DNA of 63,836 nt, counting the filler, from Sluysia triapertura (taxonomy: Eukaryota), in the NCBI GenBank assembly GCA_046118255.1. It is 5 parts of 5 records of this genome, joined end to end, with 100 filler letters (N's around TTAATTAATTAA, not from the genome) between each part and the next. Parts side by side here need not be neighbours in the genome. Positions count along the whole stretch, not along the records: positions 38,203 to 52,127 come from JBJNIA010014090.1; 4 more parts are not named here. One strand, given 5' to 3'. The notes below the pieces were generated by a model that was not told the DNA's origin, did not search any database, and saw nothing but the letters and a program-made list of their open reading frames with translations. Position 1 is the stretch's first letter; every line of letters begins with the position of its first letter. Positions 7,900 through 50,273 of this stretch are shown one piece after another. The position numbers were made by a program, and so were the translations under genes.

Positions 7900-8417
7900 C
7901 CCCCAAATCAGTTCAACCATATAATATTCTTTATCAATCACATTTTATACGTTACCCCATCTAAATTATAATTTCCCTCCGTGCAATATATCCGTATCTG
8001 CTTTCAACTTCCTGCAGCAAAATAATGATAGTACTTTATAACACCTTTTTACTCCAATTATTAAATCACTCGTTATCCTTATTTTTTTCCTTTTGAAAAG
8101 CTTCTAGGCAAGTCTCTGCGAACATTATTAACGGTATAAACTGTTCCATGTTGACCACCATACTATAACTTTACAGCTGGCTTCACTACACATTCTTTAA
8201 CCTCTGTGCATATTAGTCCACTTTCTTGGTATATATGAAATATTTCACTTCCTAAATTAAATAACCTTGTTGGTGTGGCCTCTGGGCAGTTCTCTGTGTC
8301 TACTAACGAGAAACTGCAGTCGTAAGCTACAATTGTGCCAGTTGGTTTAATTCCGCACAAAATTAAATTTATCATTAACAATCTTTGGAAATTTTGAGTT
8401 ATCGCTGTTTGATTCAT
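7900..8417 (-). pseudogene. Chuvirus-like envelope glycoprotein N-terminus (copy 1, degenerate)
   Basis: Hydrophobic leader, then IVAYDCSFSLVDTENCPE...IYQESGLICTEVKEC, and after frameshifts YCTEGNYNLDGVTYK/NVIDKEYYMVEL. Aligns with copy 2 (KAFDC...FSLLDTEDCPE...VYQEGNLVTTLVKEC; GTCERGSIEYEGK/YHNVVTQETYVVSL). Confidence 0.8.
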
Positions 8418-8420
8418 CTA

Positions 8421-8760
8421 CCCCTGCCGAGAACTTATTTCTATGTTTTCCTTGTTTATCTCCTCTATTAAGACTTTCCATCCTCCCTTCTGAATAATCC
8501 ATTGCGATAAATATTTATTTATTAACACATCTGCTTTTTGCAGGCGTTTTCTTGATATACGAATGTTCTATCATGTATCTGTATAGCCAAATGTGTCATT
8601 ATATTTATTATTTTACTATTCGTAATACCATCCATTATAGTTCGTCTAATTATCATTCCGTTTTCATAGTCTAGTATTGTATTGTGATGTAAAATTCTAA
8701 AAGATCCCCTTTTATTTGTGGTATTTTACCTTTAATTAGTTCTGCTAGCTGTATCTCCGT
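8421..8760 (-). pseudogene. Candidate Bcl-2-fold domain of a retroelement (copy 1)
   Basis: Manual translation across frameshifts gives IPQIKGDLLEF (BH3-like), IIRRTIMDGITNSKIINIM (BH1-like) and KYLSQWIIQKGGWKVL (BH2-like). In frame with the glycoprotein ORF, separated by a single TAG at 8418-8420. Confidence 0.6.
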
Positions 8761-9715: not shown

Positions 9716-9792
9716 GTGTTGGGTAAAGGCCTAAAATGCCATGTAGTACAATTGACTATAGTAATCTAAAAAATTGTTAGGTTGGGCTGATA
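9716..9792 (+). repeat. tRNA-derived repeat, copy A (leader plus first bases of the tRNA-like core)
   Basis: TTGGGTAAAGGCCTAAAATGCCAT...TTGACTATA...TTGTTAG...GGGCTGATA matches the leader of the copies at 19682 and 39572. Breaks off directly into LINE sequence. Confidence 0.75.
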
Positions 9793-11019
9793 TGACTATT
9801 GACCCCATCCTGGAGATTGAGATCCTCACTACTCTCAAATACTGCAAGCGCTCATCGCCAGGTCAGAACCGAATAACATTCGAGAATTTACAGGATGTCG
9901 ATCCCACTGGTAAACAGAATCCTACTTTTTAACAGAATTCTGGTCAACCAAAAGGTCCCGACTGTTTGGAAGAACTACAACACTTTACTGATAATCAAAC
10001 CCAATAAATATGACTCGGCACAAAACGTCGCTTCATGGAGATCTATAACTATAGTGGACTGCAGCTATAGAGTCTTTGCCAAGATCTTGAATGACCGCTT
10101 ACTGGCATAGGTCAAAAGTGGCAACCTCATCAGTACACATCAATCAGTACTCTCCAATCAGATGGATGCACCGAGCACAACTTTCTACTCTACTCACTTA
10201 GAGAAATAGTGGAGTCGATAAATCACAGGAAATCGCGCAAAATTGAATTACACATTGTCTTCCTCGACTTGGCGAATGCATTTGGTTCGGTGCCACACAA
10301 TCTGATATGGAATACTCTCAAGAATGGGACTCCAACAGCAAACCCTGAATATCCTGAAGGACCTATACCAAGACAGCAGTACCACCTACAAATGCAATGG
10401 CATTATAACCAAACCTGTACCGATCAAGTATGGAGTGAAAGAAGGCTGTTCATTGTCCATGACACTATTCTGTCTGGCAATAGACTATCTGTTCCGGCAG
10501 TTCACGTATGATGACTGCATCAAAATAACTGATGACCTGAAATTTCCTCAATACCTGGCATATGCTGACGACAGCCCTAATTAGTACTACCTTCGACAGA
10601 CTACAACAGATCGTCAACGGAGTTGTCCAAAATGCGAAATCAGCCAACCTCATATTCCGGCATACGAAATGCTTCTACTACAACAACATCCCCGACTCGA
10701 GATATTCACTACTAATCGAAAATACTCCGATTCCCCGTGTCACCAGTGAAAACCAAACTCTATATCTTGGCGTTCTATTTGGTGACTATAAGCGGCAAAG
10801 TATTAATGATTTATTAAACGAGAACATCAAATACACCGAACTGATATCGAAGTCAAAACTGGGTGCCCGGAATAAGTTCCTCATGTACAGGAACTTTGTG
10901 CAATCCAGACTTCCGTTCCATCTAAGGAACCTGAACATCAACGTACAATCCCTCAGCAACCGCCATCCTAAAAGCACACCCCAATCAGTGAGGTACGACG
11001 AAAAGATACAAGAACTGCT
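9793..11019 (+). mobile_element. Non-LTR retrotransposon RT fragment, R2/NeSL-Utopia-like (frameshifted, cut by scaffold end)
   Basis: RT motifs WRSITIVDCSYRVFAKIL, FLDLANAFGSVPH, GVKEGCSLS, LAYADD and YLGV spread over overlapping ORFs. GC content is higher than the flanks. Confidence 0.9.
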
Positions 11020-11119
11020 NNNNNNNNNNNNNNNNNNNNNNNNNNNNNNNNNNNNNNNNNNNNTTAATTAATTAANNNNNNNNNNNNNNNNNNNNNNNNN
11101 NNNNNNNNNNNNNNNNNNN
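11020..11119. other. Artificial scaffold-joining spacer
   Basis: N44-TTAATTAATTAA-N44 (six-frame stop linker). Confidence 0.97.
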
Positions 11120-12309: not shown

Positions 12310-13767
12310 GTATAATAATAATATAATAGTAATAGTAATTAAGTAATTTAAATAATTGATTATAAGAACCAAATGAATGTTTCAAAGAAATATTAAAATA
12401 TGTAAATACTAATACATAATTTAAGATTAATTTAATAGCACAATCAACATATAAATGATATTATTCTGTATGAAAAATAAAGTTTTAACTTTGATAATAT
12501 ATTAATAATATATAACGTTAATAATATATTAGCATCATTATATTATATTATAGTTATTGTTTTTCATTATTGTTAGCAAATTTTAATAAAATACGTAACT
12601 TTTAAACAAAAATTAAAAAATACACAAAAATAATCTAGTTAATATAATATAGTATACAATGTATTATAAAAATGATGAAGAAAAAAAATGAAATTACTGT
12701 GATAAAATATGTTTTTGCATGGATGAATTAATTAGTGTTGATTTTTATCATTACATAATTTTGAATTAAGATTTCTTAAAATACTTTTGTTAATTAAAAT
12801 TGCACTATATGCATTATTAGAATTTTTATGTTATATTTACTTTACTTTAAATTTACTTTTTTTACGTAAATTAATAAAACAATTGCAAAACGTTAAACAT
12901 TCTAATTGTAAACGATTAAACAATAACATCACACTGAACAAATTCACCATAAAAATCATCTAAAGACTTAATTTATATTCACATAACATTAAAACAGTAT
13001 TATCCAGGAATGTCTCAGACTCCTTAGAACACCAAATAACAATATTTCGAAGAAGAAAATTCATACTTTCATTCATCTTTTTCATTTTACAAACTCATTC
13101 TATAGATCACATACAATTCAAACAATTAAAATGCAAATGATCATATGGTAAGTTAAATAGTAATAAGAAAAGAAATAAAAGATATATGAATAAAAGAAGG
13201 ATTGACACAAAAGGAAGTCAACAGAAATTTAACCATCTTTTAAACGGTAAAACACTCAGAAAAATTTTCAGTGATAACCGTATTCAAAACATCTTGCACC
13301 TTTATCTTTTAATAACTCCAGACATCCTTTATCTAAATATTATATTTATGTAAAAAAATTGAAGAAAGAATTAATAAAATATTTTATTATATAATAATAA
13401 TAGTAATAATATTGCTAATATAATATTAAGCAGAGTTAATAAATTGATGTAATAGTTGATATGTTGTGTGGTCACATCACCTGTTACATCACATTAAGGA
13501 TACATTTAGATGTTGCATAATTATTGTTTGCATACAGTTATCTAATCATATTAGTAAAAGAAATGTGTGAAATCATAAAAGCAATCGTTTTTTGAGAAAA
13601 TACAATGTAAAAAAAGATTTGTTCAAAGCTGAAATTTAATTCTTTAATGTCATTTAGGTTTATCGTTTGTTTTTAGTCATGGTAAATAAAGCTATTTAAA
13701 TTTTTAATTTTCTTATTAAATTTAAATGCCTTATAATCGAAGAAGATTTCCTATAACAACCTTATCT

Positions 13768-13970
13768 ACATTCAAAGTACGAATAGGATATTACATAATC
13801 AGTGAAACAGTGGGAGTTGACGTGCACAAGTTAACTGGAATTCATGTTGCTGCAAAAATTGTGAATCTGGATAAGATTAAAGTACTTGATGTCTCTAGTA
13901 AAGTAAGGCGTGAAATACAAAATTTGTTTTTTGACATCTTCATATTATTAAATTAAAACAAATTATTGGC
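13768..13970 (+). pseudogene. PRKAA: AMP-activated protein kinase alpha (SNF1/PRKAA) N-lobe fragment
   Basis: KVRIGYYIISETVGV..DVHKLTGIHVAAKIVNLDKIKVLDVSSKVRREIQNL, then after a frameshift F*HLHIIKLKQII, versus canonical [71 protein letters not shown]. The Gly-rich loop is deleted. Confidence 0.85.
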
Positions 13971-16050: not shown

Positions 16051-16590
16051 AAACTGCCTGCTGATCCTGGTCCTGGTACAGAAGAAATCCAGGAGTGGTT
16101 TAATTAAGTACCAGGTTTTTTTTAGGTAAGAGAAACTTAAAAGTGATCGCTCGGTTGTGTGGAAAAACAAAATGTCAAAACTTTATTGAAAGAGAACACA
16201 AATGTCGTGGTAGTTCATATAAAATACAACCTAATATTCCGGGAAAATATTGGTAATATTATAATGATAAAAAATGTAATATTAAATAAAGCTACCTGTT
16301 TGCATGAATCAGATTTTTATACTAATTTAACAGAACGTAATAAAAATTGTATTTTAGAATCAGAAGTAATCATATTTAATATCAATGTCGGATAAGTCTG
16401 TATGCTAAATCAAAATGTAATATGTTTCGAAATCATTTTTTATCCACTTTGTACAAAAAGTGGCAAGGCTCTTCGACGATATTTTTATAATTCTAATGAT
16501 CACACTTGCGAATTTTTTTATAGTGGAGTGGGTGATTTCGGAAACCGATTTAGTATTTTTATGAGTGCAAAGAATTATGTGAAAATTATG
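16051..16590 (+). pseudogene. Kunitz/BPTI multi-domain protease-inhibitor remnant
   Basis: KLPADPGPGTEEIQEWF (16051-16101) and KALRRYFYNSNDHTCEFFYSGVGDFGNRF (~16464-16550). Several Cys lost; stops and frameshifts present. Confidence 0.65.
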
Positions 16591-16924
16591 ATATTAAAGT
16601 ACACAATTATAAAAGGGAACTAAAAAGTTTAATTCACAAAGTTTCACATAAAGACAAAAATAAATGCCCTTTGTCAGTTGAAAATATTTGTACAAATGAT
16701 GAAGCTTATATTTGGATATATAATAATGATTGTATTATTTTATTAATTTATTGCTTCAAAATTAAAAAATTTTTAAAAATTAAATAGACGAGGGTTTCAC
16801 AAAGCTAGCACTTTACATTCAAGTTTCATAATGAATCAAACTATAAAGAGAATACTGTGGTTGTTAGTGTTGTGATAGATGATATATAGTCATATTTTAC
16901 GAATAATTTTTGAGATAAATTAAC

Positions 16925-17572: not shown

Positions 17573-18685
17573 TCAGGAATAAAAGATGATGAAGTATCTT
17601 GAATTGATAAACATCGTTTGTTGGTTGTTTACAATTTGTTTTAACCGATTCATAAGACGTAAGTACACATGTAATACTAACTGCGTATTTTTGTCAATTA
17701 GAATAGTCTTTCTCATAAACGTTGCAACTAAATTGTTGTATTCCTTTCTATGAAAGAAAATCATGCATGTTCTGTCGACAGTAACATATCTCTCTAAAGC
17801 ATCTATGTTCAATTTTGACTTCTCACTTGTTTTTAAGCTGTTATCGGGGTTCGAAATTAAAATCTTAGAATCTGATACGCATAAAAATGACATATGATTT
17901 AGAATAACAAAATATAAATATTTCTGATTAACTTTAAATTGTGGATATATACTTCTTTCATATCTATTCATAACCACAGGATAGTTAGTTCCTGCAACAT
18001 AGTTAACATTTGGCATCTTTTTGAAAGGATGGAAATTTCGAATAAATTCTTTACCGGCTACAGGTAAAGAAAAATGCACTACAGTTGTGGTTGGATTTAT
18101 TACAACGATATTTAAAGCTGAATTACTGAAACATTCTAAATTACTTGAAGATTCTAACGGCAATTCGTAAACCAAAGAATACAAAATTTCTTCTAAATTA
18201 GATTTTATATACTTAATTCTCTTATCTTCAACCACTTTACAAGGATCTTTGGTATATTTCATTATAAAACTACATGAGAAGTTATCTAATTTTGTAGGCA
18301 TTAATTTTACGGACAGACTAAATTTTCTCCATTTTTTACACTGAAAACATCGACACCAAATAAACAACAATTTATTAGAAATGAATTCATTAACCGAACT
18401 GTTATGATGTGACTTGACAATCCATTCCTTTTGCAAATTCATTATTTCTTGATACTGTATATCATACTTAAAGGATGTTGATATTTTATTCATACGAATA
18501 TTACAAATATGTTTAACATTTAAAATATGATACCATTTCGGATTTGAATCAGAACATTCTTTGATAGTATGTAAGAAACACATTGGAAAGTTTGGACAAC
18601 ATTTGTTTTCACTACATTGATGAACTAATTTCTTTTTCATGAGTTCTACACCTTTAAAATTGAAATTTCTAAGTAAATTATCCAT
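17573..18685 (-). CDS. KDM1B: Lysine-specific demethylase 1B (LSD2)-like N-terminal part: zinc finger, zf-CW and start of SWIRM; no catalytic domain
   Basis: 370-aa ORF. CCPNFPMCF...KWYHILNVKHICN (LSD2 zinc finger), WCRCFQCKKWRK...FSC...DPCKVVEDKR (zf-CW), FHPF...VMNRYERSIYPQF...LYFVILNHM (SWIRM start). May be a pseudogene. Confidence 0.75.
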   Translation of the reverse strand: MDNLLRNFNFKGVELMKKKLVHQCSENKCCPNFPMCFLHTIKECSDSNPKWYHILNVKHICNIRMNKISTSFKYDIQYQEIMNLQKEWIVKSHHNSSVNEFISNKLLFIWCRCFQCKKWRKFSLSVKLMPTKLDNFSCSFIMKYTKDPCKVVEDKRIKYIKSNLEEILYSLVYELPLESSSNLECFSNSALNIVVINPTTTVVHFSLPVAGKEFIRNFHPFKKMPNVNYVAGTNYPVVMNRYERSIYPQFKVNQKYLYFVILNHMSFLCVSDSKILISNPDNSLKTSEKSKLNIDALERYVTVDRTCMIFFHRKEYNNLVATFMRKTILIDKNTQLVLHVYLRLMNRLKQIVNNQQTMFINSRYFIIFYS

Positions 18686-19470
18686 GATATCATTAACTAA
18701 AAAATTTTAAGTGTATAGACCAAAATTTTTAATTGTGAATTGTATATTGATTTAATTTTCTCATTCTATTTTTGATTGCCCAATCAGAGTATTAAGAAAT
18801 AAGTTTGCAAAGAATATTGAGGTCATTATAACAATTATGCAAATTGTGGTGTGTTTGTAACAAATAACTCTCATTGTGTAATGGAATTTTATGTTTAACA
18901 TGACATTGTTAATATTTTTTTAAAAATATTGCAATACAATTTGTAATCTATAACTTATGATAGGTAATCTGTAATATTCTAGCTTTAGTTTTATGCTCTA
19001 AATGGTGATTTATAGATTTCTGGTTTATAATTTTGACTTATTATTTACGATTTATGATTCATGATTTATGTGGGGTGACCAACATTAATTTCAAAATCTT
19101 ATGATCATTTATATTTATTTTATAGTTGATTTTGAATTTTCTTTTATGGTGTCACTTATAAATTACATTTGGTGCATTTGTTTTGTTAAATATGTGATAT
19201 AAAATTTCATAAATTATTAAAATTGCAAATATTTATTATTATGTTATTAACTAGATAATTTAAGATAATTTTGGTGTATTTTAAATTGTTTCACAATTAT
19301 GTTACCTAATAAACTCATCATAATGTTAATGCTTGTTATTTTGATTTATATGATAAATTTGACGTCTGTTAATTTGTATCAAATATTTTACTAAAATAAT
19401 ATGTTTTAACAAAAATTAACATTGAATCGGTTTTTGTGTTAAATATTAATATATTGTTATTTATACATAA

Positions 19471-19531: not shown

Positions 19532-19681
19532 ATTAATATTCGTTATTAATGTATTAATGTTTATTGTGCTCATATAAGTACTCAAAAGCGTTAAATAATT
19601 TTATTTAAAACACAAAAGAATTTTTTTAAATATCATAAGGATAAATTGCAAATTTTAGTTTTTTATTATTATTATTGTTAT

Positions 19682-19835
19682 TATTGGGGTAAAAAGGCCA
19701 AAAGTGCCATTTGGTAAAATTGACTATAATAAAGTAGAATCGTTAGACGGGGCTGATAGCTCAGTGGTAGAGCATCGACTGCGCAGACAGGTCCCGGGTT
19801 CGATCTCCGGTCAGTCCATTTAACGAAGTCTAACA
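19682..19835 (+). repeat. tRNA-derived repeat, copy B (best preserved); pseudo-tRNA core 19750-19818, Cys/Ala-like
   Basis: Acceptor stem GGGCTGA/TCAGTCC, D arm GCTC-AGTGGTA-GAGC (A box), T arm CCGGG-TTCGATC-TCCGG (B box). The anticodon arm does not fold. Flanked by GTTAGAC...GTCTAAC and followed by an N gap. Confidence 0.85.
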
Positions 19836-32100: not shown

Positions 32101-34039
32101 TTAAAATAAAAGTAATTGACAGAGAAAAATAACCACAATAATAACAATAATAATCATAATAATAATAATAAAAACTATCTGAAATGAACTTAGAATAATT
32201 AAAGAACAAGAAATTGTTTCTATTAATTCATAAAAATAAGTGACACACTAATTAGTGAAAGAGATATTAAGTATTAGTGAAAAAAATTTACAGAGCATTA
32301 TCAATAAAAACTAAATTAAAAAAATTTAATATTTTATCTACTAATTAACTATATGTATTATATTTTTAGGAAAAACTAATATGAACTTTTCACTTAAAGA
32401 AACAAAAAAAATATTATCCACAACGTAATTCATCATTTTATTTTATTATATAAAAAAATTAATTCATCTTTAATTTTAATTCTATTCAAAATAAAATGAG
32501 CACTTGAATATGGAGGCATTATAAAATCAGTAAATGCCATATAAATATGATATTTTGTAATAAAATGTTAACTAAGACATGAGAGAAAATCAGTTTAGTG
32601 AACTATTGAAATTCCAGATAATGAAAATTAGTCACAAAGAAATAAGACGTAAAATTTATTGAAGAACTCAATAATAATTCAGTCGATACACATGCTACTG
32701 TGTTAAGATAATAAATTGAGTCATATAATTTTGTCTTACATTTATGACATTAAATTTATTAATATTAATAAATTATTATTAATAAATATTAATAAAATTA
32801 TGAATATTAATAAAATAAATTAATGCTAATTATTACATGATGATAATTGATATTAATCTAAAAGATCAAAAATTCTTTAGTAATACAAGATACCAACAGA
32901 CTAAAATGGTTAATGAATTGACTGTTACGTCGAAAATCAGATATCTTAAAGTTCACAATTCGTATCTAATGAAAAGACAAGGTGAATGAATCATATTCAA
33001 CTATATTTAACCAGTCTTCATGAGTAAAAGAATTTGGTTATTTATTTGTTAAAGTTCCAATACTGGAAGTAAATAATCTGCTAGCAGATCTGCGCGATTT
33101 GTTCAAAGGTAATGTTAATCTAAAGTTACAATAAATTGACATTCAAAACGATATCATAAAATTATTCAATAAAAAGTTCATTCCAATCCTGCTATTTATT
33201 ACCAGACTCTACAAGTTAGGTTTCAGAATATTTTAGTACTTATTATATGCTAGATAAATAACTAGCTACTGCAAAGTTATTACTTTAAATTTCATGGTAT
33301 TTCTAATGTAAACTATCTCTTTTGTTATTATTTTGATATTAAAGGGACCGATCTTTCTCCTAAAAAATTGAAATATAAAGTGTTGTGCCCAGTTTATTGC
33401 TCTAATAAGAGAAACTCTAAATTTTATAAATTAGATAATTTAATAAAGACGATAATTATACGATAATAAGTGCAAATTATCACCACTGAGAATATCACCT
33501 TAAATCAATCAGTGTTGATTCTACTTTGTGTCAGCAATGTGATCATAAATATAAGATTAATTCTGACCATTTCATAATTTATGATTATTATAATTTCGTT
33601 GCAATNNNNNNNNNNNNNNNNNNNNNNNNNNNNNNNNNNNNNNNNNNNNNNNNNNNNNNNNNNNNNNNNNNNNNNNNNNNNNNNNNNNNNNNNNNNNNNN
33701 NNNNNNNNNNNNNNNNNNNNNNNNNNNNNNNNNNNNNNNNNNNNNNNTCTGGTTAAAACAAAAATACATGTTTTTTAAAGTACAATTTTTATTATAATTC
33801 ATATGTGATACCCATTTAAATTTTAAATGTTTAATCACAATTATGGTACAAATACAAAAGTGAACTAGCGTACATCACAAAGAAAATACCTGTAAGAAAG
33901 AAGGAAAATTAATAGATAAATACCTAATAAAGTGACTAAGACAGAGAAGGTCGAAAAAAAATATTAAAAATAATTCACATAAGAGAAAAGCAAATATACT
34001 AATAATTAGTTAAAATTTTCAAAGGATATTAAACTAAAT

Positions 34040-36400
34040 ATTGAGGATACTGGCTGACATGAGGACACTGTAAAATGTATCCAAATGCCCAGGAATATTA
34101 CCACTTCATCCCGAGACATTACATGAAAAGATTTGAATCTGGCTTGAACTACCTAGGTTACACGAACCGTAGTATCCAACTGGTGATACAGAGGTCAAGG
34201 CAATAACGATCAACAAACCAGTAAAAGAAAGAAAGAACAGGCACAGAAGAAAATCTCGCCAAAAGATGCCTGAATCCAAACTCAAAGCCAGAGAGACACT
34301 TGGAACTCAAACTGACGACCTGCCTGAGCAACCCATATTGAAGGATCAGCTTGAACCTCAGAAGAGTGCCAGGAAGAGAACCCATAGGACCAAGCCCTGA
34401 AATATCCTAAGGAAAATGTAGATAGTGGTAGTGGTTAAGATACTGGGACTCAGTCCTAATAAACCACCAGCCAAAAAACAGGGAATTAGGGACTCCCTCA
34501 AAATTAGGGACTCCTGTCCCTCAAAAAATGTAACAGGAGTACTTCTCCCGGCAACACCGGTCGTTCAGAAAAGCCCTGTTACAGCAAAAGCTGGGGTCAA
34601 CTCACCTAACCTAGAAGAATATTGTGATCTATTTAGCAAATCGGTCAGAGCCTCTTTACCGCATTGTCTAATGACCTTTTTGCCTCGGCGAAGCTGGCTA
34701 CACCCGCTCTTGCTCAGTCGATTGACACAATATTCTCTGAGTTGTCGGTAACAACTCTTGAAATCTTCCAATTACTACCAACTACTGTTGGACAAGGATA
34801 GCAGATTCATCTGTGCTTAGGATAATGAGTGCCCATCGACCTTTCGAATAAAACACGATACCGACGGAGATAACATATCTAAGCACATGCGTAACATTCA
34901 TGATGCAGTGATGACGTACTATAAGCTGAACGTCATATATTCCTGTGGTAAAATCATTAAATGCACGAGTTGACTGAGCAACACGTGGACCACAATCCAC
35001 ACTGTATCGGACCTTGAATAACCCAAGTGTGACAGGACCCAGTAATGGAAAAGTCAAGGAATGCAATGAAGAGGATATCAGTTATTCAATTGTGGACTCT
35101 TCTACGATAAAACGCAACCACTGCCCCAAGACGTACAAATACATCGTAAAAAATAATGATACGGTGTGACGTCATCTCAGAAATGCAAATGACTTCACGA
35201 AGTCTCTCCTGGTTAAGAGCATATGTGGGCCAATGTTTAACAAAATCAGTGCTCTGAATGTCCATCTTGTGAAAATGATGATATCGATTCATCAGAATGA
35301 CTATTTAGGAAGGCAATAGAAGCTTTCTTTAGGGCGTGCGTCACAGAGAGTGACAATGCGATTCTGCACACTGAACTATTTAGTTATGCCACAAGGCGGA
35401 CTGCCAAGCCTTGCTCAATAACATTCCGCTGTATAAATTGATCAAGTTCCAGCACTTTTATTGGGTCATTAACATGTGTGATGTTAATTGTCAACAATGT
35501 TCGGAAACAGTATCTGTTTATTGACCCAAAATTATAAAGGGATTCATGTTACTAGCATTGCATCCACAAAACAAACCTCTTACGCCTAGCGATGTAGTTT
35601 TTCCGAAGCAAGTGGTCCAACGGATTGTGGACCACAAATCTGCAACATCGCTCTTCAATGCAAGCGATTTACATCATCTGGAGGACTGGAATTTGACTCG
35701 GAATCCCGATACCAATTCGTGGAGCCGGATATAATGTGGACCCGACCACTCCATGCAACCTAATAAATGGGCTGGTACCGATGCAAAGGCCTAAACAACC
35801 ACACCCAACAGTGACATGAATCAGAGCGATTACAGACGGGGCAAATATAGCCAAATGAAGCATTCAACATGTTTTGTGACCCGATATACCAGGGAAGGAT
35901 CAGGATATACACAATATCTTGAACAAATGCAATAATGCCCGGGAGTCACAGTAAGAAGACTTTAGATGATATTAATCTTAATAGAATAAACATGTCGGAC
36001 ATGGCCAAAGCCTTCCAACTGATAACCAGTTCGAGAACTCCAGATGAGACTGACGGATCAGCATTATTGTGGCCCACTATAACAGTGTGCAAGTGCCACA
36101 ATTTGACCCATTGTTGATGTCCCAATTACCATATTTCTCGGACATCATTATAGAAAAGATGGTGATATCGCAGGAAGTCCGTCTTGTTAAGGATGTGTGT
36201 CCGAATTCAACATCTGGACAAAACAAGATTACAATAAATGATGTTCGAAGAATGGACCCGAAAGACGAATTTATCGCCTCTCTTTTCAACAGAATTCTTG
36301 AAACAGAGTAAATAACACGCTGTTGGAAATTCACCACAATCCTGCTCATAAAACCAGGAAAGGTAGACTAAGGTCGGAAACCATCCAATTGGTGACCTAT
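34040..36400 (+). mobile_element. Degenerate 5' portion of an R2/NeSL-type non-LTR retrotransposon
   Basis: GC-richer block with C2H2 finger remnants (CA*DNECPSTF...KHMRNIH; ICGPMFNKISALNVHL). Ends in MDPKDEFIASLFNRILETE*ITRCWKFTTILLIKPGK, homologous to LFNRILVNQKVPTVWKNYNTLLIIKPNK of the 9.8-kb LINE. Confidence 0.75.
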
Positions 36401-37019
36401 TGCTGCATTCATTAATCAAGAAAGGATATTTTGTTTTAATATTCACAATATAGCAAATTAATGATATTGTAGCACAAAATAAAAAGTAAATTTTTTACAT
36501 CATTGTATCGATAAAATTCCCTAATCGAACAATATAAAAGTTTTACCATTCGAAGTTTTGTTAATATTAAAATTGTCACGGTAAGCTTAATTTCTCGTTT
36601 GTAAAAATTATATATAGCGCTTACTATTATTGTATACGTAATTCGCAATTTTTCGACATTTTCATTTGAACAAAAAAGTTTTAAAATTTGAATAGATTTC
36701 TAAAATTGTTACACTTTTATCTTCAACTAACAGAAATGAACTAAAAGAATTCACGAAACTACTTTTTACATTAATTTGAAAGTATAGGTTATTTAACTTA
36801 TTTAATTATTTAACTTAAAAATTAAACTTAAACTAATGTTTAGAAAGAATTTTAATATTAAAACTTCGAATCTAAGTTAGAATTGATAAAACTATAGTGG
36901 TTTATAGGGTTATAATAATAAAATTTATAAGTCTAAGTAATAAGTACAACATTAATAAAATACTATTATAATAAATATAATAATATTTAAAATAATAAAA
37001 GTAAATTAATAATAGTATT

Positions 37020-39571: not shown

Positions 39572-39716
39572 TGTTAGATTTCGTAAAATGGACTGACCGG
39601 GACCTTCGCTGAGCAGTTCGAATGCTCTACCACTGATCTATCAGCCCTGTCTAACAATTTTATATTTCTATAGTCCATTATATTACATGGCACTTTAGGC
39701 CTTCTTACCCCAACAA
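39572..39716 (-). repeat. tRNA-derived repeat, copy C
   Basis: Reverse complement TTGGGGTAAGAAGGCCTAAAGTGCCAT...TTGTTAGACAGGGCTGATAGATCAGTGGTAGAGCATTCGAACTGC...GGTCCCGGTCAGTCCA...TCTAACA. The B box is deleted between the two CCGG. Confidence 0.85.
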
Positions 39717-41009
39717 TAGTAAAATAAAAGTAACTTCTTGCTCTTCATAGAAGGTAAATAACACAAGTTATTAGTATTTGTTACTGTATACATGCGAATG
39801 TGTCTTTATCTGATTGGTTAACCGTGTAGTAATTATACTCAAAAAATTAATTATCTGAAATTATGGATATATTACTATTGTGCTAGTCATACAGTCCAAA
39901 AACTTCACTAAAAAGAAAAAAAGAAAGATGGCACTAAGTTAAAAAAACCTTCACACTATATGATTTGCCAAAATGGGTACGAGACACGGAAACCAAAAGA
40001 TACGCCAAATACATATTAACACTTTTATATCATAATTTTCATATTTTCGGCAACGTTTTTTTATTTTTTTTCAAATTCTCCCATTTTTGAAAATCCTTCG
40101 CCATTTTGATTTTTAATAATTTATTACTAATATAATTTCTGTTGAATTTTTGTGAATCTTGTGAGTAAAAAGTTTTTAATAACATTATGACATCTTTATA
40201 ACTTAATGAATGAAAAGTGCATATAATTTTAATAGATAAGGTAAACGTATTTTTACGAAATGATTCGGGCTTGGGTATGAAATTGAATAGACAAGTTATG
40301 ATGAGCCTGGTCTAAGACATTCTTTTGACTATTGAACAAATAACTTAAACTGAAATATTTTCTACTGAAAACTTAACATAAAATAAATCAATCTTCCTCC
40401 AAATAGCTACTATATAATACATTAATCATCGATTTAGTCAATACTAAATATTATATTAAACGCATTCTCAACATAATGATTAATTTATTACTACTCATGC
40501 ATATGAAAAAAGAGTTGAGTTTCAATACAAATTAAAAATAAAATTGCAATGTTCACACTGCAGCCTTTTTTGACAACTAAGTAACTATATAAATACACTT
40601 AAAATCAGTACATTGTTAAAAGCCGAAAGTCCTTTTTTATTCATCTCAGTTATAATTATTCAGCAATAGTTAACTGATGTAAAAGAAAACTAACTGCAAT
40701 ATAGAAACTACTGGTACTAAAACGTTCATGCTTCATTGCTAAGAAATAAGTAATTCAGTACCATATATTACAAATGTTTGTTATCTTAAATTCATATACA
40801 CCACTCCGATGTGTATATTATGTTATTAATGACATTAATTTAACACATTTATAAACAACTTATGATCTGACAATATTATAAGTATGGCGCCAGCAAAAAA
40901 AACTTCTTCAATACATTTAATTTTAAAATATTTAATTTAGTACCATAATTTCAGTTTTTAATTTTACATTATACCTTTGTTAAATTATTTTCTAAAGTAA
41001 TTTTACTCA

Positions 41010-41472
41010 ATGAAATTATATTATACATTTTTATTAATTATTTGTTTGTATCATCAGTTAATAATAATTAATTGCTGTTTTGAATTATTGAATAAAAAAT
41101 GGTCGCCATTATCACTCAGTGAACGAATTGAACGATCTGAAATAGTATTAATTGGAAAAGTAATACAGCGATTTTTGGTTAAAAATAAAAGATGGTATTC
41201 TGTTGAATTTCAGTTGGTAGATGTAGTAAAAGGCATTGGAAGTAGTCAGACAGCTGATGTCAAATTAATTAATAAGAAACTAAATCCAACTGTTCTTATT
41301 GATGGTTTTGGTAGTACCATTGATTGTTTATCAGATGTAAAACCCGGATATGTTTATATTATATTTGGTATTGTTAAAGTTGATGGTAATATTTGGGCTC
41401 ACTATTTAACAAGTTTCGGTGCTGCTGAATTATTAACTAATTCTAATTATAACGTCGTACTCAATACTTTGG
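41010..41472 (+). CDS. Secreted NtA-domain (agrin N-terminal-like) protein, first coding exon
   Basis: Signal peptide MKLYYTFLLIICLY, then LSERIERSEIVLIGKV...YSVEFQLVDVVKG...VLIDGFGSTIDCLSDVKPGYVYIIF, matching the NtA pattern (LERREEEANVVLTGTV...YLKG...VVISGFGDPLICDNQV). Likely phase-1 donor G/GT at 41472/41473. Confidence 0.8.
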
Positions 41473-41951
41473 GTTGGTTTATTTAATTTATATTTAATAC
41501 TAAAATTGAATATTTAAAATTTTGGATATTAATGTATTATATCAATTTATATTGACCTAGTATCTAAAATAAGTAAAATATCTAATATACATCATAATAT
41601 TTCTGAAAGAGAAAGAACTTTGCCTTTTAAATATTTCATAAATATTTAATGCAATTAATGTTTCCTTCCATGTTCATTTCCGAATCTATACAGTAGCTTA
41701 TATTTCGTGCTTTTTAGTTAATTTCTAATATTTCTATTATTAACTTCGATTCGTTTATTTTAGTATTGTGGCTACTTTTATTACTGACAATTATAAATTC
41801 TGATTTTTCCTCATTAATTTTCAAACCATCTTATCAATTGAGTTACCAGTTATTCTGTTATATGAATAGTATATTCTATAATATATCTACATACATCACC
41901 ATATATGTGGTATTTATAATCTATTATACTTGATTCGATTTTACTTCATTA

Positions 41952-42056
41952 ACTGGACTGACCGGGACTCGAACCCAAACTTCTTACCTTCGATGCTCTG
42001 ACCACTAAGCTCTCAGCCCCGCCTAACAATTTTAATTTATTGTGGTCAATTTTACT
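41952..42056 (-). repeat. tRNA-derived repeat, copy D
   Basis: Reverse complement AAAATTGACCACAAT...TTGTTAGGCGGGGCTGAGAGCTTAGTGGTCAGAGCATCGA...GGGTTCGAGTCCCGGTCAGTCCA. Confidence 0.8.
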
Positions 42057-42114: not shown

Positions 42115-43679
42115 ATCCTTGAGGAAATCTATTCTTCACATATTCATCATTTGACTTCACATAACTCAATAAAAATGTTGTTTTCTTTCTAAACAAAACA
42201 CAATTATGATTTGAAACTCTAAAAATATTACAGAATTTATTCTTAAAATAGCTGTTTCTGTTAAGTGATCATTATAAAAATGTGTTTAGACAGAAACTTT
42301 GACAATCGTTGTAAAAGTGCTTTTTCAATCACTTTTGAAAGCTAAGTTTCATGATAATTGTGTCCAATTTATAATCAGTACCAACAAGAACAACAACAAC
42401 AATAATAATATATTACCGCGATACATAAGTGTTATCACATTTTGAAAAAAATTTATTTTAAGCACATAAATTTCAGCCAGAATTGTATTTAAAATGTATG
42501 TGAATTTCTCGAACAAATATAATTAATAAATTTTGTTTTAATTATATTTCTTATATGATTTTAAGGAAAAATTTGATAACTTTGAAAAACCTATGCAACC
42601 AATGGAATCACATTATTAAATAGATTTTGATGCCAATAAATAACATTGTAGAAAGCAGAATAATAGCTGGATATGAGCAAACTAGGGCATCAGGGATTTA
42701 TTTATCTCCTACATTAATTTTTAAGCATAAAACTATACCCAGACTATGCCATGGAAACGATTACATGATACTATGTTGGAATTTTGGATTGATGAATGTT
42801 TCTGTTCTTTTAATTTACTGTCTTTATTATTACCTGGCAGATGACAAAGCTTCTTCGATTACCGTAAAAGAATTACTTCAAAGTCCGGAAAGTTCAGATG
42901 TAGCTAACTGGAGTTTAATCGTGAAATGATGTAAAATAATAATTTTTAAATATGCAAAAATATTTTACATGTATGGACTAGTAAGTGATAGTAAATCATC
43001 TTAATGAAGCAATTGTTTTATTCAGAATATAATAAATAATTTAAAGTTTGCTCAAAGATAAAACTGATGTTTCTGATTTAGTTTAGGTTTAGTGTTTTTA
43101 AATTACAAGTAAAGACAATAAAATTTCTTTTTGTAAATATATTTATAAAATACATCAAACCTTCTACATAATGCTTGGTTTAATAGTAAAGGTTCAATTA
43201 TTAACTTTACTTTTTTTGCTAAAAGTTTATTATAAGATTTCTCAATAATGCTTTTTGTACAGTTTTTTTTGCATTTATTTCTATGTGTTTATTCTGTTTA
43301 AATGTGTTATATCATAAAAACATTGCATTTTTTTATTATTTTCAAGATATTCAAGATTTTTCAATACGAATAATCATAAACAAGCACAATTATTTTAAAA
43401 TATACTTTTGTTTTTATTGGTAGCCAATTTATAATATCCTCTTTGTACTTGAAACATTATTCTCATCGATTGATTCAGTTCTTGTTGTAAATTTTGCATT
43501 TTTTGAATACTCTGCATTAAGTTTTACTATATCTTTATTGATAAATTACAACAAACATCAATATTATGTACAAAGGTGTTATAAAATTGTTCATAACTCT
43601 AATAATAATATTTAAAAAAATTATGTGATTTTTCAATAATTAAATAATAATTATTTTAATTGATTAAATAATGTAAATG

Positions 43680-44290
43680 AAACTATATGTCCTGCCCATA
43701 CACATTTAGTTGGTTTAATTTTTAATCTTGCTACTTCAAGCCTTTTAAGTGTATTATCTATATCTACTACATGAGTATCAAAATCTTTTGAAAATATAAT
43801 TATATCATCAAGGTAGACCAGATAATACGAAATTCAATCATCTTTGAAATATAGCCGGTGCGCCTGTTAATCCAAATGGCATTTGTTCACATTCATATAA
43901 TTCATTTCCGCATGAAAATGCTGTTTTCTCGGCTATCCTTCTCGGCTATTTCAGTTTGCCAGTAACCACTTTGTAGATCCAATGTTGTTAAATATTTGGA
44001 ATTTCCTAATTTATCTAACATTTCATCAATTCTTGGTAATAGAAATACGTATTTTCTTGTAATTTTATTTAATTCTCTAAAATCGATGCAAAATCTCATA
44101 GTACCATCTTTTTTCTTAACTAATAATACTGGTGATGAGAATGGAGAAAAGCTTGGTCTAATTATTCCAGCCTTTTTCATTGTATCTATTTGATCTTTCA
44201 TTTCTTGTTGGTTGCATAGTGGAATTCTGTAAGGCTTCTTTCTAATTACTTTATCTTCTATTAATGGAATTTCATGTTTTATTATGATGG
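43680..44290 (-). pseudogene. pol: Ty3/Gypsy reverse transcriptase
   Basis: KPYRIP, GIIRPSFSPFSSPVLLVKKKDGTMRFCIDFRELNK, LDLQSGYWQ, MPFGL, VYLDDIIIFS, LKIKPTKC. Frameshifted. Confidence 0.95.
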
Positions 44291-44519
44291 AATCTCCAAT
44301 ATCTATTTATTTCTTGCAATTTCCCAGGGATATCTATAGATAACTTTATATGATATCTCTTTTTGATGTTTAGTTAGATTCTTATTCTTTATTTGTATTT
44401 CTTCATAGTCTTCTTCATCTTCGATATTTCTTTGTAGTTTTGTGTTTTTATTTCTTGGCGTATCATCTGATATCATGTTTATTGGTGTTTGTAATTTATA
44501 ATTAACTATTTCTCCCAAT

Positions 44520-45110
44520 TTTGTACCTGCATAAAGCCATTTGTTTTCATCTATGTAATTTATAATTCTTATTGGTATATTTCCTTCGTTGGTATATATT
44601 TCCTACATATTGAATTCCTATATTTAATTTCTCTTGATATTTTTTTGAGGCTATAAACATTATTGGGCCATTTCTTAAACTGTTTGTTTTTCCTGGTATT
44701 ATGCATTATGTTCTTTTTAACAACCAACGTGGTTCTTCTAATATAACATCATCTTCATCAATTGGTCTATCTGTATATGTATCCATTAATTTTGCTTTGC
44801 TAAAATCTAATGAGACTCCTTTTAATTGGAATAATACATCCATGACTAATATCATATCCTCTGGACATTTTCTCATTACCCTACATTTTATTTCAATCTT
44901 GTTTTGTCCGATTTCACATAATATTTTTAATACTCCTAGTATTTCGATTTCATCTCCAGTTATTCCTGTTAGATATGAATGTTGTTTGGCTAAATTATTC
45001 AATTCTTTAGTAGTTAATAATGTTTCACTTATTAATGAAGCAACAGCTCCTGTATCAACTAATGCAGATAACATTCTTCCATTAACTCTCATATCCACCA
45101 TAGGTCTTCG
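44520..45110 (-). pseudogene. Retroviral-type aspartic protease plus Gypsy PR-RT spacer
   Basis: RPMVDMRVNGRMLSALVDTGAVASLIS...GITG...DMILVMDVL, followed by GNIPIRIINY...LYAGTKLGEI. Confidence 0.92.
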
Positions 45111-45289
45111 TGCACTATTATAATTATTATTAGCACATATCATATAAACTAGATTTCTTGGTGGTGGTTGATATAGACTTTGTTTTTCTTCAATAACTGG
45201 TTCAATATTTATTGTTTGTAATGCGATATCTTCAGTTTGTTTTTTCTCTTTCTTTAAAGCATTTAATTGAGCATGTGCATGATGATGTA

Positions 45290-47092
45290 ACAAGAACTTA
45301 GCTAAAAATGGAAAACAACCGATTATTAATTTCCATGTAAAACCTGATATTTTATAAATACCTACAACTGAAAATATTTGAGAGATTATAAGTGCTATGA
45401 CTTTAATTAATACATATATTCCTATTAAACCTGAAAAAGCTTGCCCTATAACTAAGAAATTTCCCCAAATTTATTTTAAATATTATGTGCTGCTAATAGT
45501 AATTCAAAATTTATCTTTCCATCTTTTTCTACTATTGCTTTATAAACTATATCAGTAAGTACCTTAGATCTTTTAATTGGGAATAAGATTTCATGCCAGG
45601 CCGCTTGAATGTCTTCATTTGAATAGATTCCTGATCTTGGAATGTTTTTTGTACCTGAAAATTTCAGTTTTGTTTTCACCTCTGTTAATCCTATAATTTC
45701 TGGAGTTTTGACTTGACTCCTATGTGGTAAAGATATCCAAAGATTATCGTCGATTTTATATTATGGAGCCATCACATTAGAGCAGTGTAGTGTTTTAGGT
45801 TTCACTTTATTTGTTGGCATAATTATTCTTGTAACTGGTTCTAAATAAGTATTTTGATTTTTATATATATTACTGGTAATTCGTTGGTGCATTTGCTTTC
45901 TTGTCTTATTGGTACTTCTAATTTTTTACACTTGTATGTATATAGAACTTCACCCATTAATCTACCAAATACTCCTTCTTCTAGTGGAAGTAACGGTGCT
46001 ACTAAGTCTGGGTTTGTTATTGCTACAGCTAATTTAGTTCTTAATATTTCTTTATTAAGAAATCTCTAGCTATAATGGCTTGATAAACTTTTTCTAATGA
46101 CATAAGTCCTAAGTGATAATAAAAGTCAATTTTGTTATTAAAGTAAGTGTTTAATTGTAGATTCTTTGTGTCTATTCCTTTTTTAGCCTGAAGTATCGTC
46201 TTTTCTGATAAATATATTCCTTGGTAGTTAGTTTCCGTGATTTATTGTCCACATCTAATTACTAATTTCTTTGATACGAATATTAATCCATCTTCTACTT
46301 TGTTAGCCATTAAAATTGTCGGAGTTTCAATTTCATGAAGTCTTTTTCTTTCAGTTATATCTAAATTATCCTTATAAATTTGTTTTTTATTTATTTCTTC
46401 TACTGCTAACTCATCTTCATTTTGATACATAAATCCTGAAATTAAATTAAACTTAATTTGTTTTAAGAATATTAACAGACACTGGTATTTTTCCAATTCG
46501 TATATTAATATAGATTCGCCAGTATCACAACTTCTTTGGTCTGGACATCATAGTACCTTTATCTAAATTGAAACTTCCATTAAAAGATTTCAGACTTACT
46601 ACGTATGTTTCTTGAGTTACAACATTATGATAAATTTTTCCTTCATATTCTATTGATCCTCTTTCACAAGTACCGTCAATTAATACGTTACCAGATTTTC
46701 TAATATTATAAATTATTTTCTCATTATTTTTAATTCTTAAGAATATATCCCTTGTTTAAGCTTATGTATCCAGTTATTCGGTGATATTTTAAAAGGTTTT
46801 AATATATTCGATATATTAATAATTGAAGAGTGACTATGATGTCCACAATACCATACTACTACAGATCTTTTAAGCATTCTTTTACTAAAGTCGTAACCAA
46901 ATTTCCTTCTTGGTACACATTTAATATTTTAATATCTTTTATTTTGACTCTATTTGTTCTAGATTCCGGACAGTCTTCGGTATCTAATAAAGAAAACTTT
47001 CTTCCAATTTGGGGTTGGTTACAATCAAAAGCTTTTATAGCATTAGTTTTATTAATTCCGATTAATGCAAATAAAACAATTATAAATAACAT
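45290..47092 (-). pseudogene. env: Chuvirus-like envelope glycoprotein (copy 2, essentially full length, frameshifted)
   Basis: Signal MLFIIVLFALIG, AFDC...SLLDTEDC, WYCGHHSHSS, DGTCERG, CGQ, NPDLVAPLLPLEEGVFGRLMGEVLYTYKC...CTNELPV, LEPVTRII...HCSNVMAP, GIYSNEDIQAAWHEILFP, and membrane region IWGNFLVIGQAFSGLIGIYVLIKVIALII...GFTWKLIIGCF. This is the motif series of Chuviridae-type G proteins. Confidence 0.88.
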
Positions 47093-47208
47093 ATTATTTA
47101 TTGAAGTTCCAAATTGTGGAAATGATCCATTTGAATTTCCTTTATTATTATTATTAGTCGGGATATTGTATTAAGTGGTTCATTTAAATATTCTTTCCTT
47201 CTTTTTCT

Positions 47209-47560
47209 TTATCCTTTTTTTATATTTTCCCATCCTCCGAATTGTTCAATTAAAGTACCTAATTTTTTATCAGTAAAGTTTATAACCTTATCTATTTTTT
47301 ATTTAGTTAACAGTGTCGCTTTATTACATTGGAATATTATGTAAGCCATTACTATCTTAAGTCTATATTAAGCATAATCTGTTTATTTATTATCTTAATT
47401 AATGCAGCTTTGTATTCCTTTAATTCAGGTAATAATGTTTTATACTTATCAAAGTTAGAAAATTTATTAGACAGTAGAGCGTCAATTATAGTTTTAGTAC
47501 TTAAAGTCTCTTCTATATTCTTATGGATAATTTTAGTCAAATCAGCAGGTTTTCTATGTA
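47209..47560 (-). pseudogene. Candidate Bcl-2-fold domain (copy 2)
   Basis: End of ORF 47352-47924 plus frameshifted continuation: IINKQIMLNIDL/KIVMAYIIFQC...KIDKVINFTDKKLGTLIEQFGGWENI. BH2-like GGW at 47230-47238. Confidence 0.55.
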
Positions 47561-48720
47561 TTGGGGTTGATAATATTGTCTCGTTATCATTATTCTTTTT
47601 AGGCATACCTGGTCTTCTTTTAAAAGTATTTGTTTCTTTATCTTCAGTTTCAATATGTGGATTTTTATTTAAATCTATTATATAGTCGGGTTTGCCTTCA
47701 GTATAATCATCATTCTCATTTGTAATATCTATAATTTTACTTTCATTATGATTATATATAACTTTATTAATATTATTTTCCTTATAATTATCTTCCATTA
47801 ATTCTTCTAGTAGTGTACGTGGGGTTTTATCTAAGTCAACATCATTGTCATCATTTATTAGTTCATCCAATTTTCTTAAATCATCAGAAGGCTTAGTATA
47901 TGCCATTATAACTGCGGAAGTCATTGATGTTTCCTCATGGTTTATTTATTTTATCATTAGTGGCTATTATTATTGATTCAATCTCTTCTGTGGCACTGTA
48001 ATAGGTATCTTCCTCTTCTATTTCCATTTCTTCCGCTTGTATTTCTTCATCATCCGTTTCTTTAATGTTATATATATTTTCTGTATCTGTTTCTACTTCT
48101 TGATCATCACTTAGTTCTGAGTTATTTTGTTGATTTTCTTCTTGCTTTAATTCTTCTTCTGTTGAACTTGATTCTTCTGTTGGAATTGATTCTGTATTTG
48201 ATTCTTTTTCTATTTCATCATTACTTTCAACTGACTTATTTAATTCTAGTTTCTTCGTCTTTCTTTCCCATTTGTCAATTATTTCTTGAATCCCTTTTCT
48301 TTTATCTTCATTTGATATCACTTTCTTTATCTCCTTTATTTGCTCAATGCTTTCTTCCAAAGGTTGGTCTAATAATTTTCGAATTCTAACCTGAATTGTT
48401 GAATTGTTTTTTTTCTCGTTGTTCCCTTCTTTGTTTATCCTTTTGAAATTCCAGGTATCTGTCATTCATGTAACTCATAAAGATTTCTTGTTTGTTCTTA
48501 AATCTTTTCTTGTCACAATCCAATCCAGTAATATAGAATTCCCGTATCATTGCATTCTTTTCTTCATCTGAAATTAACTTAAGATATTTATCATCTTCAT
48601 CACTACTCATTTCTCTTCTTCTTGGTTGTCTTCTAATTCTATTTCTTTCTCTTTTATACTGATGTTCTTCATATTCGCATTCATTTTCGTAATCTTTTTA
48701 GCTTCTATAATTACAATTTA
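47561..48720 (-). pseudogene. Acidic, low-complexity linker of the retroelement polyprotein
   Basis: Consecutive E/D/K/N-rich ORFs (48386-48610, 47935-48465, 47352-47924) offset by frameshifts, lying between the Gag knuckle and the Bcl-2-like region. Confidence 0.7.
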
Positions 48721-48759: not shown

Positions 48760-49830
48760 TTACTTTCCTATTCGGGCTTTGGTATCGTCCCTTACCTTAT
48801 TAAAATCCTGAGTAAATACATTTTGTCTTAACTTCCTACAATCTCTTGAACAATGCCCCTTTTTATTACAGTTGTCACAGATTAATTTTCCATCACTATT
48901 AGTTTGAGTCTTATTATTTTCATATTTTGTTGGACTCTTGCTTCTATTCCTATTAAAATTGGAGCTTTGTGGTCATCTCGGTGCTAGTCTTTGTTCATAA
49001 TTAGAGGCACCATAGTTACTTGTTCTATTATTTTGAAATCCTCTATTATTATTTCTTCTATAATTATAATTATTTGAGTTACCCCTGTAATTGTTTGAAC
49101 TGCTTCTGTAATTATTTGAGTTACTTATCCAATTATTTGAATTTCCTCTAAAATTATGTCTGAAATTAATTGAATTATAATTGCCTCTACGTGGGCTATT
49201 ATATCGTCATAATTGTAATTACTGTCGTTATATTCTTCATAATTAAATTTATTGTTATCATAATTATTCGTATTTCTTGTTAATCTTGGGCTTTTATCTT
49301 CTTTTTCCTCATTATCACTTATATAATCAATATCATTCTTATTCTTATTCTTAATTTAGCGTTTTATACTTCTTAGTTTCTTAATTACTTCTTAAAAGGG
49401 TTTTCCTTCTATTAAGGTAACATAAGTTATTAATTCAGGTCGTAATCCAGTTTTTAATTTATCTATTAGTGTTATTTCCGTTTTATCTCAGGAATTTTGG
49501 CTCTAGCAACAAGGCTTTTAAGAGCGCAAGCATATTCATATGCAGATTCATTAGGTTTTTGTATTCTAGTATTGAGCATTTTAGCATAATATTTAACCAT
49601 ATCATCAAGAGCAATTTGTTCTGTATATGTATTAACAAATTCATTACATGTTTGTTTATCATTATTGCTTATTTCTTTATATGTCTGCATAGCCACTCTA
49701 GTTAGATAATTTTGGATCCGTTATATTTTTTCGGCTTCATTCCAGCCATTTTCTTCTGCTACGGTTTCATATTCAAATCGCAGAGATCTTCCTTTGCTCC
49801 GTCAAATTTTTTCATTTCAGGTAAAAACAT
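48760..49830 (-). pseudogene. gag: Gag (capsid-like domain, R/G/N-rich segment, CCHC zinc knuckle)
   Basis: KKFDGAKED../FEYETVAEENGWNE, RIQKPNESAYEYACALKSL (MHR-like), CDNCNKKGHCSRDC (C-X2-C-X4-H-X4-C) at ~48838-48879. Confidence 0.9.
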
Positions 49831-50255: not shown

Positions 50256-50273
50256 TCCTCACTCTGGGCACCA
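50256..50273 (-). promoter_or_regulatory. Primer-binding site, most similar to the elongator tRNA-Met 3' end
   Basis: TGGTGCCCAGAGTGAGGA about 430 nt upstream of gag. 16/18 to the complement of the vertebrate elongator tRNA-Met 3' end as recalled (TGGTGCCCCGTGTGAGGA). Confidence 0.7.

Follow-up and report, generated by a model that had tools for sequence, protein, structure and literature searches.

The closest described relatives of the element analysed here are the giant gypsy-like Burro retroelements of planarians (GYPSM1; Grohme et al. 2018), which we know through section 7 of Arkhipova & Yushenova 2019 (PMC6431247). As described there, Burro elements encode Gag, a Ubi2/SUMO-like domain, a BCL2-like domain, an in-frame mononegavirus-like envelope protein (env), a protease, a dUTPase-like segment and reverse transcriptase (RT), and they also carry BIR, MATH/TRAF and ankyrin domains. 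The same section mentions that copies in Dugesia japonica are decaying and puts forward that the elements interfere with apoptosis. GAG-ENV-POL errantiviruses with an HSV/gB-type env were described in Nematoda, Bryozoa and Platyhelminthes (Chary & Hayashi 2026, PMC13524379); they share gene order and envelope class with our element, and the main text of that paper contains zero occurrences of 'bcl'. Large DNA viruses are known to encode Bcl-2 proteins of their own (PMC11209288). A literature search on Bcl-2 in retroelements returned just the domain label on Burro, and no structural or functional study was found in the accessible texts; the extended data of Grohme 2018 and the supplements of PMC13524379 may cover compact elements. 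The accessible portions of PMC12440569, PMC8532177 and PMC11410931 held no additional Bcl-2 information.

The window, i.e. the whole stretch of 63,836 nucleotides from Sluysia triapertura that was analysed, is AT-rich eukaryotic sequence with a GC content mostly between 0.20 and 0.30. On its minus strand it contains a decayed Ty3/gypsy copy with the order gag, spacer, Bcl-2-like domain, chuvirus-type env, protease and RT; this copy is a dead fossil. A primer-binding-site-like TGG motif, which we take to resemble the 3′ end of elongator tRNA-Met, lies upstream of gag (50256–50273). The broken Gag (48814–49777) consists of a capsid-like region and one CCHC knuckle (tblastn with Gag of the relatives described below, E 2e-10 to 2e-4; zf-CCHC E 0.006). 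Between gag and the Bcl-2-like ORF lies an acidic low-complexity spacer (47938–48697), for which we found no credible Pfam match, no ubiquitin-like domain and no match to the spacers of relatives. Translation of 47595–47621 yields a basic motif resembling GRP[KR], presumably AT-hook-like; GRP[KR] also stands before env in relatives L006, P0006, P0008, P0012 and P0015. The broken Bcl-2-like domain occupies 47212–47600, the 5′ limit being approximate. The hydrophobic env leader at 47051–47095 (mean hydropathy 2.37 over 15 aa) starts 21 aa before AFDC, and relatives have a similar segment; it is a predicted internal signal peptide and a possible tail anchor for the Bcl-2-like domain.

The chuvirus-type (class III/gB-like) envelope glycoprotein itself (45230–47032) is spread over several broken frames, five pieces of which match PF24664 (E 7e-5 to 2e-12). 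It shares up to 81% identity over 63 aa with relative P0003 and, in the env tree comparison, exceeds 45% identity with none of the relatives. The aspartic protease (44820–45110) shares its open frame with the env C-terminus (ORF 45470–44706: PF24664 E 9e-11, RVP E 4e-8) and is followed by a linker and RT (43675–44602, RVT_1 E 1.4e-7). The linker aligns with L005 and L007, occupies the place of Burro's dUTPase-like segment and gave no Pfam match at E 10. The element is truncated inside RT, at 43675, where the tblastn alignment to P0004 and P0008 stops; because the window copy is cut there, no LTR pair can be shown for it.

Compared with Burro as described in PMC6431247, the parts and their order are the same: Gag with CCHC, a BCL2-like domain, a mononegavirus-like env in frame between gag and pol, protease and RT. 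The likeness extends to a ubiquitin-like domain located after Gag and ahead of the Bcl-2-like domain in relatives L006 (1960–2220, Pfam E 5e-5), L007 and P0012. The elements differ in size: here, gag to mid-RT spans about 6 kb, and L007 has a frame of 3,291 codons, which runs from Gag to integrase in the order PR-RT-RH-IN, versus 4,873–5,140 aa and more than 30 kb in Burro. Furthermore, the window copy has one CCHC knuckle, and no ubiquitin-like, MATH, BIR or ankyrin domain was detected in it. As Burro is known to us by description, homology of its BCL2-like domain with the domain studied here is inferred from position. The layout BCL2-env-protease is already published for Burro, and the window element is a compact Burro-like member rather than a new system; the novelty implied by the original prediction, which had placed a captured Bcl-2-like domain directly before the envelope protein, is not supported. 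New are the fold-level support, the compact relatives from metagenomes, the family-wide replacement of NWGR, the coming and going of the domain and a testable model of its anchoring.

The family of the main element is abundant in sequencing run X1 (11,458 contigs, 30/30 bins covered); runs X2–X4 show the X1 pattern at far lower depth and were not counted as independent. Summed contig depth was lower in the Bcl-2-like bins than in the env bins, a measure that cannot rank the parts. In X1 and X4, several contigs fuse the end of gag to the start of env (window 48750 to 47140) and lack the spacer and the Bcl-2-like region, which hints at a sister subfamily or a deletion form with the layout of relative P0013.

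Six-frame translation located the peptides on which the original prediction was built, all on the minus strand, at two sites. At the main site (copy 2), ORF 47945–47352 terminates in IINKQIMLNIDLR, and a frameshift near 47360, in the BH1-equivalent segment, leads to KIVMAYIIF...KKLGTLIEQFGGWENI at 47361–47212. This piece contains an in-frame stop (47301–47299) and the BH2-like GGW (47238–47230), so that both lesions proposed to hide the domain from the ORF track are present; an additional frameshift, absent from the earlier description, separates the Bcl-2-like segment from the env leader. The second, distant site (copy 1; 8090–8725, minus strand) is a fragment of about 640 nt comprising the BH1/BH2 half of the domain and the env N-terminus; it reads from 8725 to 8525, then changes frame and reaches GGW at 8486. 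Translated in all six frames, the 63.8-kb window contains GGW just twice, both times 53–69 codons before the env [YF]DC motif. The two sites had been aligned with each other as copies. Their X-joined segments do align, with a score of 45 that was equalled in 33 of 5000 shuffles and is modest alone, but they are not copies of one family: the env N-termini share 34% protein identity, and blastn found no match between copy 1 and copy 2. Judged from these comparisons, the two are members of different families.

Membership of the window sites was assessed with a profile built solely from relatives L005–L007, which is free of circularity because these three were found by an env-only query. Copy 1 scored 30.9 bits, and the C-terminal piece and the X-joined form of copy 2 scored 17.0 and 14.0 bits, respectively (0/2000 shuffles in each case); the two sites filled ranks 1–9 of 8,490 window tiles. 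In a separate comparison of the parts upstream of BH2, copy 1 reached 13.7 bits (1/2000 shuffles), and copy 2 was not above chance (800/2000); the N-terminal piece of copy 2 was likewise not significant on the L005–L007 profile (2.7 bits, 520/2000). With an earlier profile of eight sequences, the score of copy 2 was just 6.1 bits (25/2000 shuffles). In a profile comparison, the family profile matched the C-terminal piece of copy 2 with a probability of 38% and the long upstream ORF with 0.8%. Word-index protein searches with ORF 47945–47355 and with alignment A1 gave no matches, and neither the window ORF nor the L006 domain had a usable match in the ESM Atlas. From these scores, we class copy 2 as a divergent member on the strength of its position and of the profile score of its final helices; the predicted fold comes from relatives. 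We regard it as very likely that the window segment belongs to the Bcl-2-like family.

A first search with a profile of the BH2-like and env N-terminal pieces of the window, which was biased towards GGW, returned 32 relatives from 1.84 billion representatives. The env-only query added three more, L005, L006 and L007, and the domain was present in all three. A word-index protein search with the family alignment returned only P0020, P0023 and, weakly, P0034; candidates L001–L004 were set aside, their match covering just 18 aa (E 5e-4). Several additional locus scans found nothing. The env start could be located in 34 of 37 proteins, and P0022, P0030 and P0034 were dropped. Among the 17 relatives with at least 140 residues before env, nine carry the domain (leave-one-out scores of 12–92 bits) and eight do not (at most 4.6 bits); in P0013, which lacks it, Gag runs straight into the leader. 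A single reading frame was found in L005, L007, P0003, P0012 and P0017. The domain stands directly before the envelope in the intact relatives, as it had been placed in the window: in L005 and L007 it shares one frame with env and pol, and in L006 one stop separates it from env. Relatives that carry it come from lineages only 18–31% identical to each other and have kept it in frame, the domain of L007 being degenerate, including BH2. On an unrooted env tree of 16 rows, from which P0002, P0020 and copy 1 were omitted as too short, its distribution implies a minimum of three gains or losses; the deep branches of this tree are weakly supported.

Three further observations concern these relatives. 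Aspartic-protease domains are repeated after env, with three in L005 and two or more in L007, P0006, P0008 and P0015, whereas the window element shows one. P0004, a gag-env-pol retroelement polyprotein, is on record as a hypothetical protein from a Flavobacteriaceae MAG, into which a eukaryotic contig was likely binned by mistake. P0024, one of the eight relatives without the domain, looks chimeric: it joins mitochondrial ribosomal protein L47 to an env fragment, which probably reflects either a host-gene insertion or a gene call that is itself chimeric.

The assignment to the Bcl-2 family was examined at the levels of sequence and structure. The proposed HMMER comparison with PF00452 was borne out in part: the model (positions 35–100 or part of them) matched directly before PF24664 in 5 of the 19 relatives scanned (E 7.7e-5 to 0.012), but none of the 19 reached the curated cut-off of 31.4 bits, the best score being 23.6 bits (P0020), and neither the window's own pieces nor the L005 and L007 domains alone gave a Pfam Bcl-2 match. 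In a search of family profiles against 177,635 PDB sequences, the best 60 rows were all Bcl-2 family members (best E 0.002 and 5e-4 for two profiles); BH1 and BH2 of Bcl-xL were aligned, and the similarity is to Bcl-xL, A1 and A179L. The structure model of the L006 domain (pLDDT 82.8, pTM 0.78) consists of seven helices. Foldseek, the suggested structural check, retrieved for this model only Bcl-2 family members among the matches listed, with probabilities of 0.99–1.00 and a best E of 3e-3, none being below 0.001.

With VIA-align, Bcl-2 folds occupied ranks 1–28 of 48,161 chains (Z 9.5–6.8), and the first unrelated row had Z 6.7 over 70 residues. The best superpositions covered 119–120 of 139 residues with an rmsd of 3.5–3.7 and Z 9.5, which is below the level of about 13 that VIA-align calls safe for helical bundles. 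Against a viral library, the named rows among the best 18 were mostly vBcl-2 proteins (best E 0.03). A first model, of P0002 with the env start, was too poor (pLDDT 54); for it, Foldseek placed Bcl-xL at the top (E 0.08), and in the VIA-align ranking Bcl-2 was interspersed with helical repeat proteins and did not come first. Each fold score is middling for a helical bundle, and it is the convergence of sequence and structure searches that carries the case. The domain of the intact relatives is predicted to adopt a seven-helix Bcl-2 fold, and there is little doubt in our judgement that the family is Bcl-2-derived; the original call is supported by sub-threshold Pfam matches, by the PDB profile search and by structure prediction for intact relatives. 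As cellular and viral Bcl-2 proteins tie, the donor cannot be named. With Bcl-xL, A1/Bfl-1, the Bcl-2 proteins of Hydra and Trichoplax and the viral KsBcl-2, BHRF1 and A179L, the domain shares the predicted helical fold, the start of BH1, GGW of BH2 and a hydrophobic segment after BH2. It differs from them by the absence of Asn-Trp-Gly, by an identity of about 10–20%, by being embedded in a retroelement polyprotein and by a hydrophobic segment that is the env leader.

NWGR had been described as not conserved in the window, and this holds throughout the family. The corresponding positions read TNSK, EDTK, TDSK, SRNK, DKSR and similar; Gly is found in 0/11 rows, and the BH3-contacting Arg position of BH1 is Lys or Arg in 9/11. 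The frameshift of copy 2 falls at the NWGR position. According to the aligned rows, loss of NWGR is a family-wide trait and not decay. The BH2 motif (WIxxxGGW) is better preserved: GGW, which was expected to recur in further relatives, is kept in 9/12 rows, and its first Trp is present in 8/12, replaced by Tyr in three and by Ala in one. In copy 2, as in L005, GGW is present but the first Trp is missing. A hydrophobic stretch begins 24–64 aa downstream of BH2 in every one of the 13 motif-bearing rows. This stretch is the env leader, and because it is present with or without the domain, the leader is first of all the signal of env. In characterised proteins, the BH1 Arg pairs with the BH3 Asp, and Gly and Arg both matter for binding; ORFV125, which has SPGR, shows about 250-fold weaker Puma binding linked to this sequence (both as given in the accessible text of PMC9027176). 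Deerpox DPV022 is described as binding Bak, Bax and Bim without recognisable BH motifs (PMC11209288). Given a basic BH1 residue that is kept, a Gly that is lost and the precedents of ORFV125 and DPV022, BH3 binding by the family domain seems possible and would probably be narrow.

Taken as a whole, the reading we favour, with moderate confidence, is that of a broken gag-env-pol Ty3/gypsy copy in whose intact relatives the predicted Bcl-2-fold domain before env is a likely membrane-anchored inhibitor of host cell death; to the death-blocking role itself we give slightly less than an even chance. In such a mechanism, the env leader would thread env into the ER and signal peptidase would cut before the [YF]DC motif. 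The Gag-spacer-Bcl-2 part would remain cytosolic, with the leader holding it like a Bcl-2 tail anchor, until the element's protease releases the Bcl-2-like domain. Its groove, with the basic BH1 residue kept and the glycine lost, may bind only a few kinds of BH3 partner, pro-death or autophagy-related, and this binding would put off the death of the producing cell. With domains as small and naturally intact as that of L006, the apoptosis-interference suggestion in section 7 of PMC6431247 becomes directly testable. More speculatively, and to our mind rather doubtful, a broad clade of compact gag-env-pol retroelements, possibly extending beyond planarians, might make a working glycine-less Bcl-2 anchored by the env signal peptide, so that one cut of a polyprotein would yield both a fusogen and an ER-anchored death blocker.

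Vaccinia A52, B14 and A46 are Bcl-2-fold proteins which block innate immune or stress signalling without recourse to the BH3 groove. A similar function of the present domain, its groove being unused, would agree with the replaced NWGR, with the ubiquitin-like domains (E 5e-5) of relatives and with the MATH/TRAF domains described for Burro. However, the L006 model is nearer to BH3-binding members (Z 8–9.5) than to A52, A46 and B14 (Z 6.8, 5.8 and 5.5, respectively), and the similarity in sequence is to Bcl-xL, A1 and A179L, which makes such a signalling inhibitor unlikely. Alternatively, a genuine Bcl-2 fold could serve particle assembly and have no cell-death role: held by the leader, it would act like a matrix domain and fasten the Gag precursor to membranes that bear env. 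The position between Gag and leader in one frame forces such a topology, and the BH1 glycine is lost throughout; the domain is nevertheless dispensed with in 8/17 relatives, including P0013, and BH2 and the basic BH1 residue are retained, so we consider an assembly tether improbable. A further, quite unlikely reading has an old captured Bcl-2 gene now drifting as a passenger that the element can do without, in the lineage of the window's main element if not more widely. The repeated gains or losses on the env tree, the degenerate BH2 of L007, the weak N-terminal match of copy 2 and the contigs joining gag end to env start would fit such drift, but an in-frame domain with a confidently predicted fold has been kept across the divergent lineages described above. 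A chance helical segment with GGW and no relation to Bcl-2, as the sub-threshold Pfam scores and the Z values middling for a helical bundle might suggest, is highly improbable because sequence-profile and structure searches converge on one family, the agreement extending over BH1 as well as BH2 and over roughly 120 of 139 residues.

Outside the domain-bearing loci, the window contains several minor features. A decayed non-LTR retrotransposon RT fragment (9877–11071, plus strand; RVT_1 E 0.003) lies in a GC-richer stretch, and a 377-codon open frame at 17573–18706 (minus strand) with a weak CW zinc-finger match (E 0.02) is a possible host gene. Host-like pieces on the plus strand comprise an Agrin NtA domain at 41001–41486 (E 3e-4), a Kunitz domain at 16396–16623 (E 5e-5) and, at 13726–13956, one degenerate fragment without Pfam match, which we take to resemble the AMPK-alpha N-terminus. 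A short dispersed repeat of about 80–170 nt with 76–85% identity occurs at 9717–9792, 19663–19835, 39572–39733 and 41943–42055; it is SINE- or MITE-like, and ARAGORN detected no tRNA in it. Finally, a GC-rich island (up to 0.42) with short open frames extends from 34000 to 36500.
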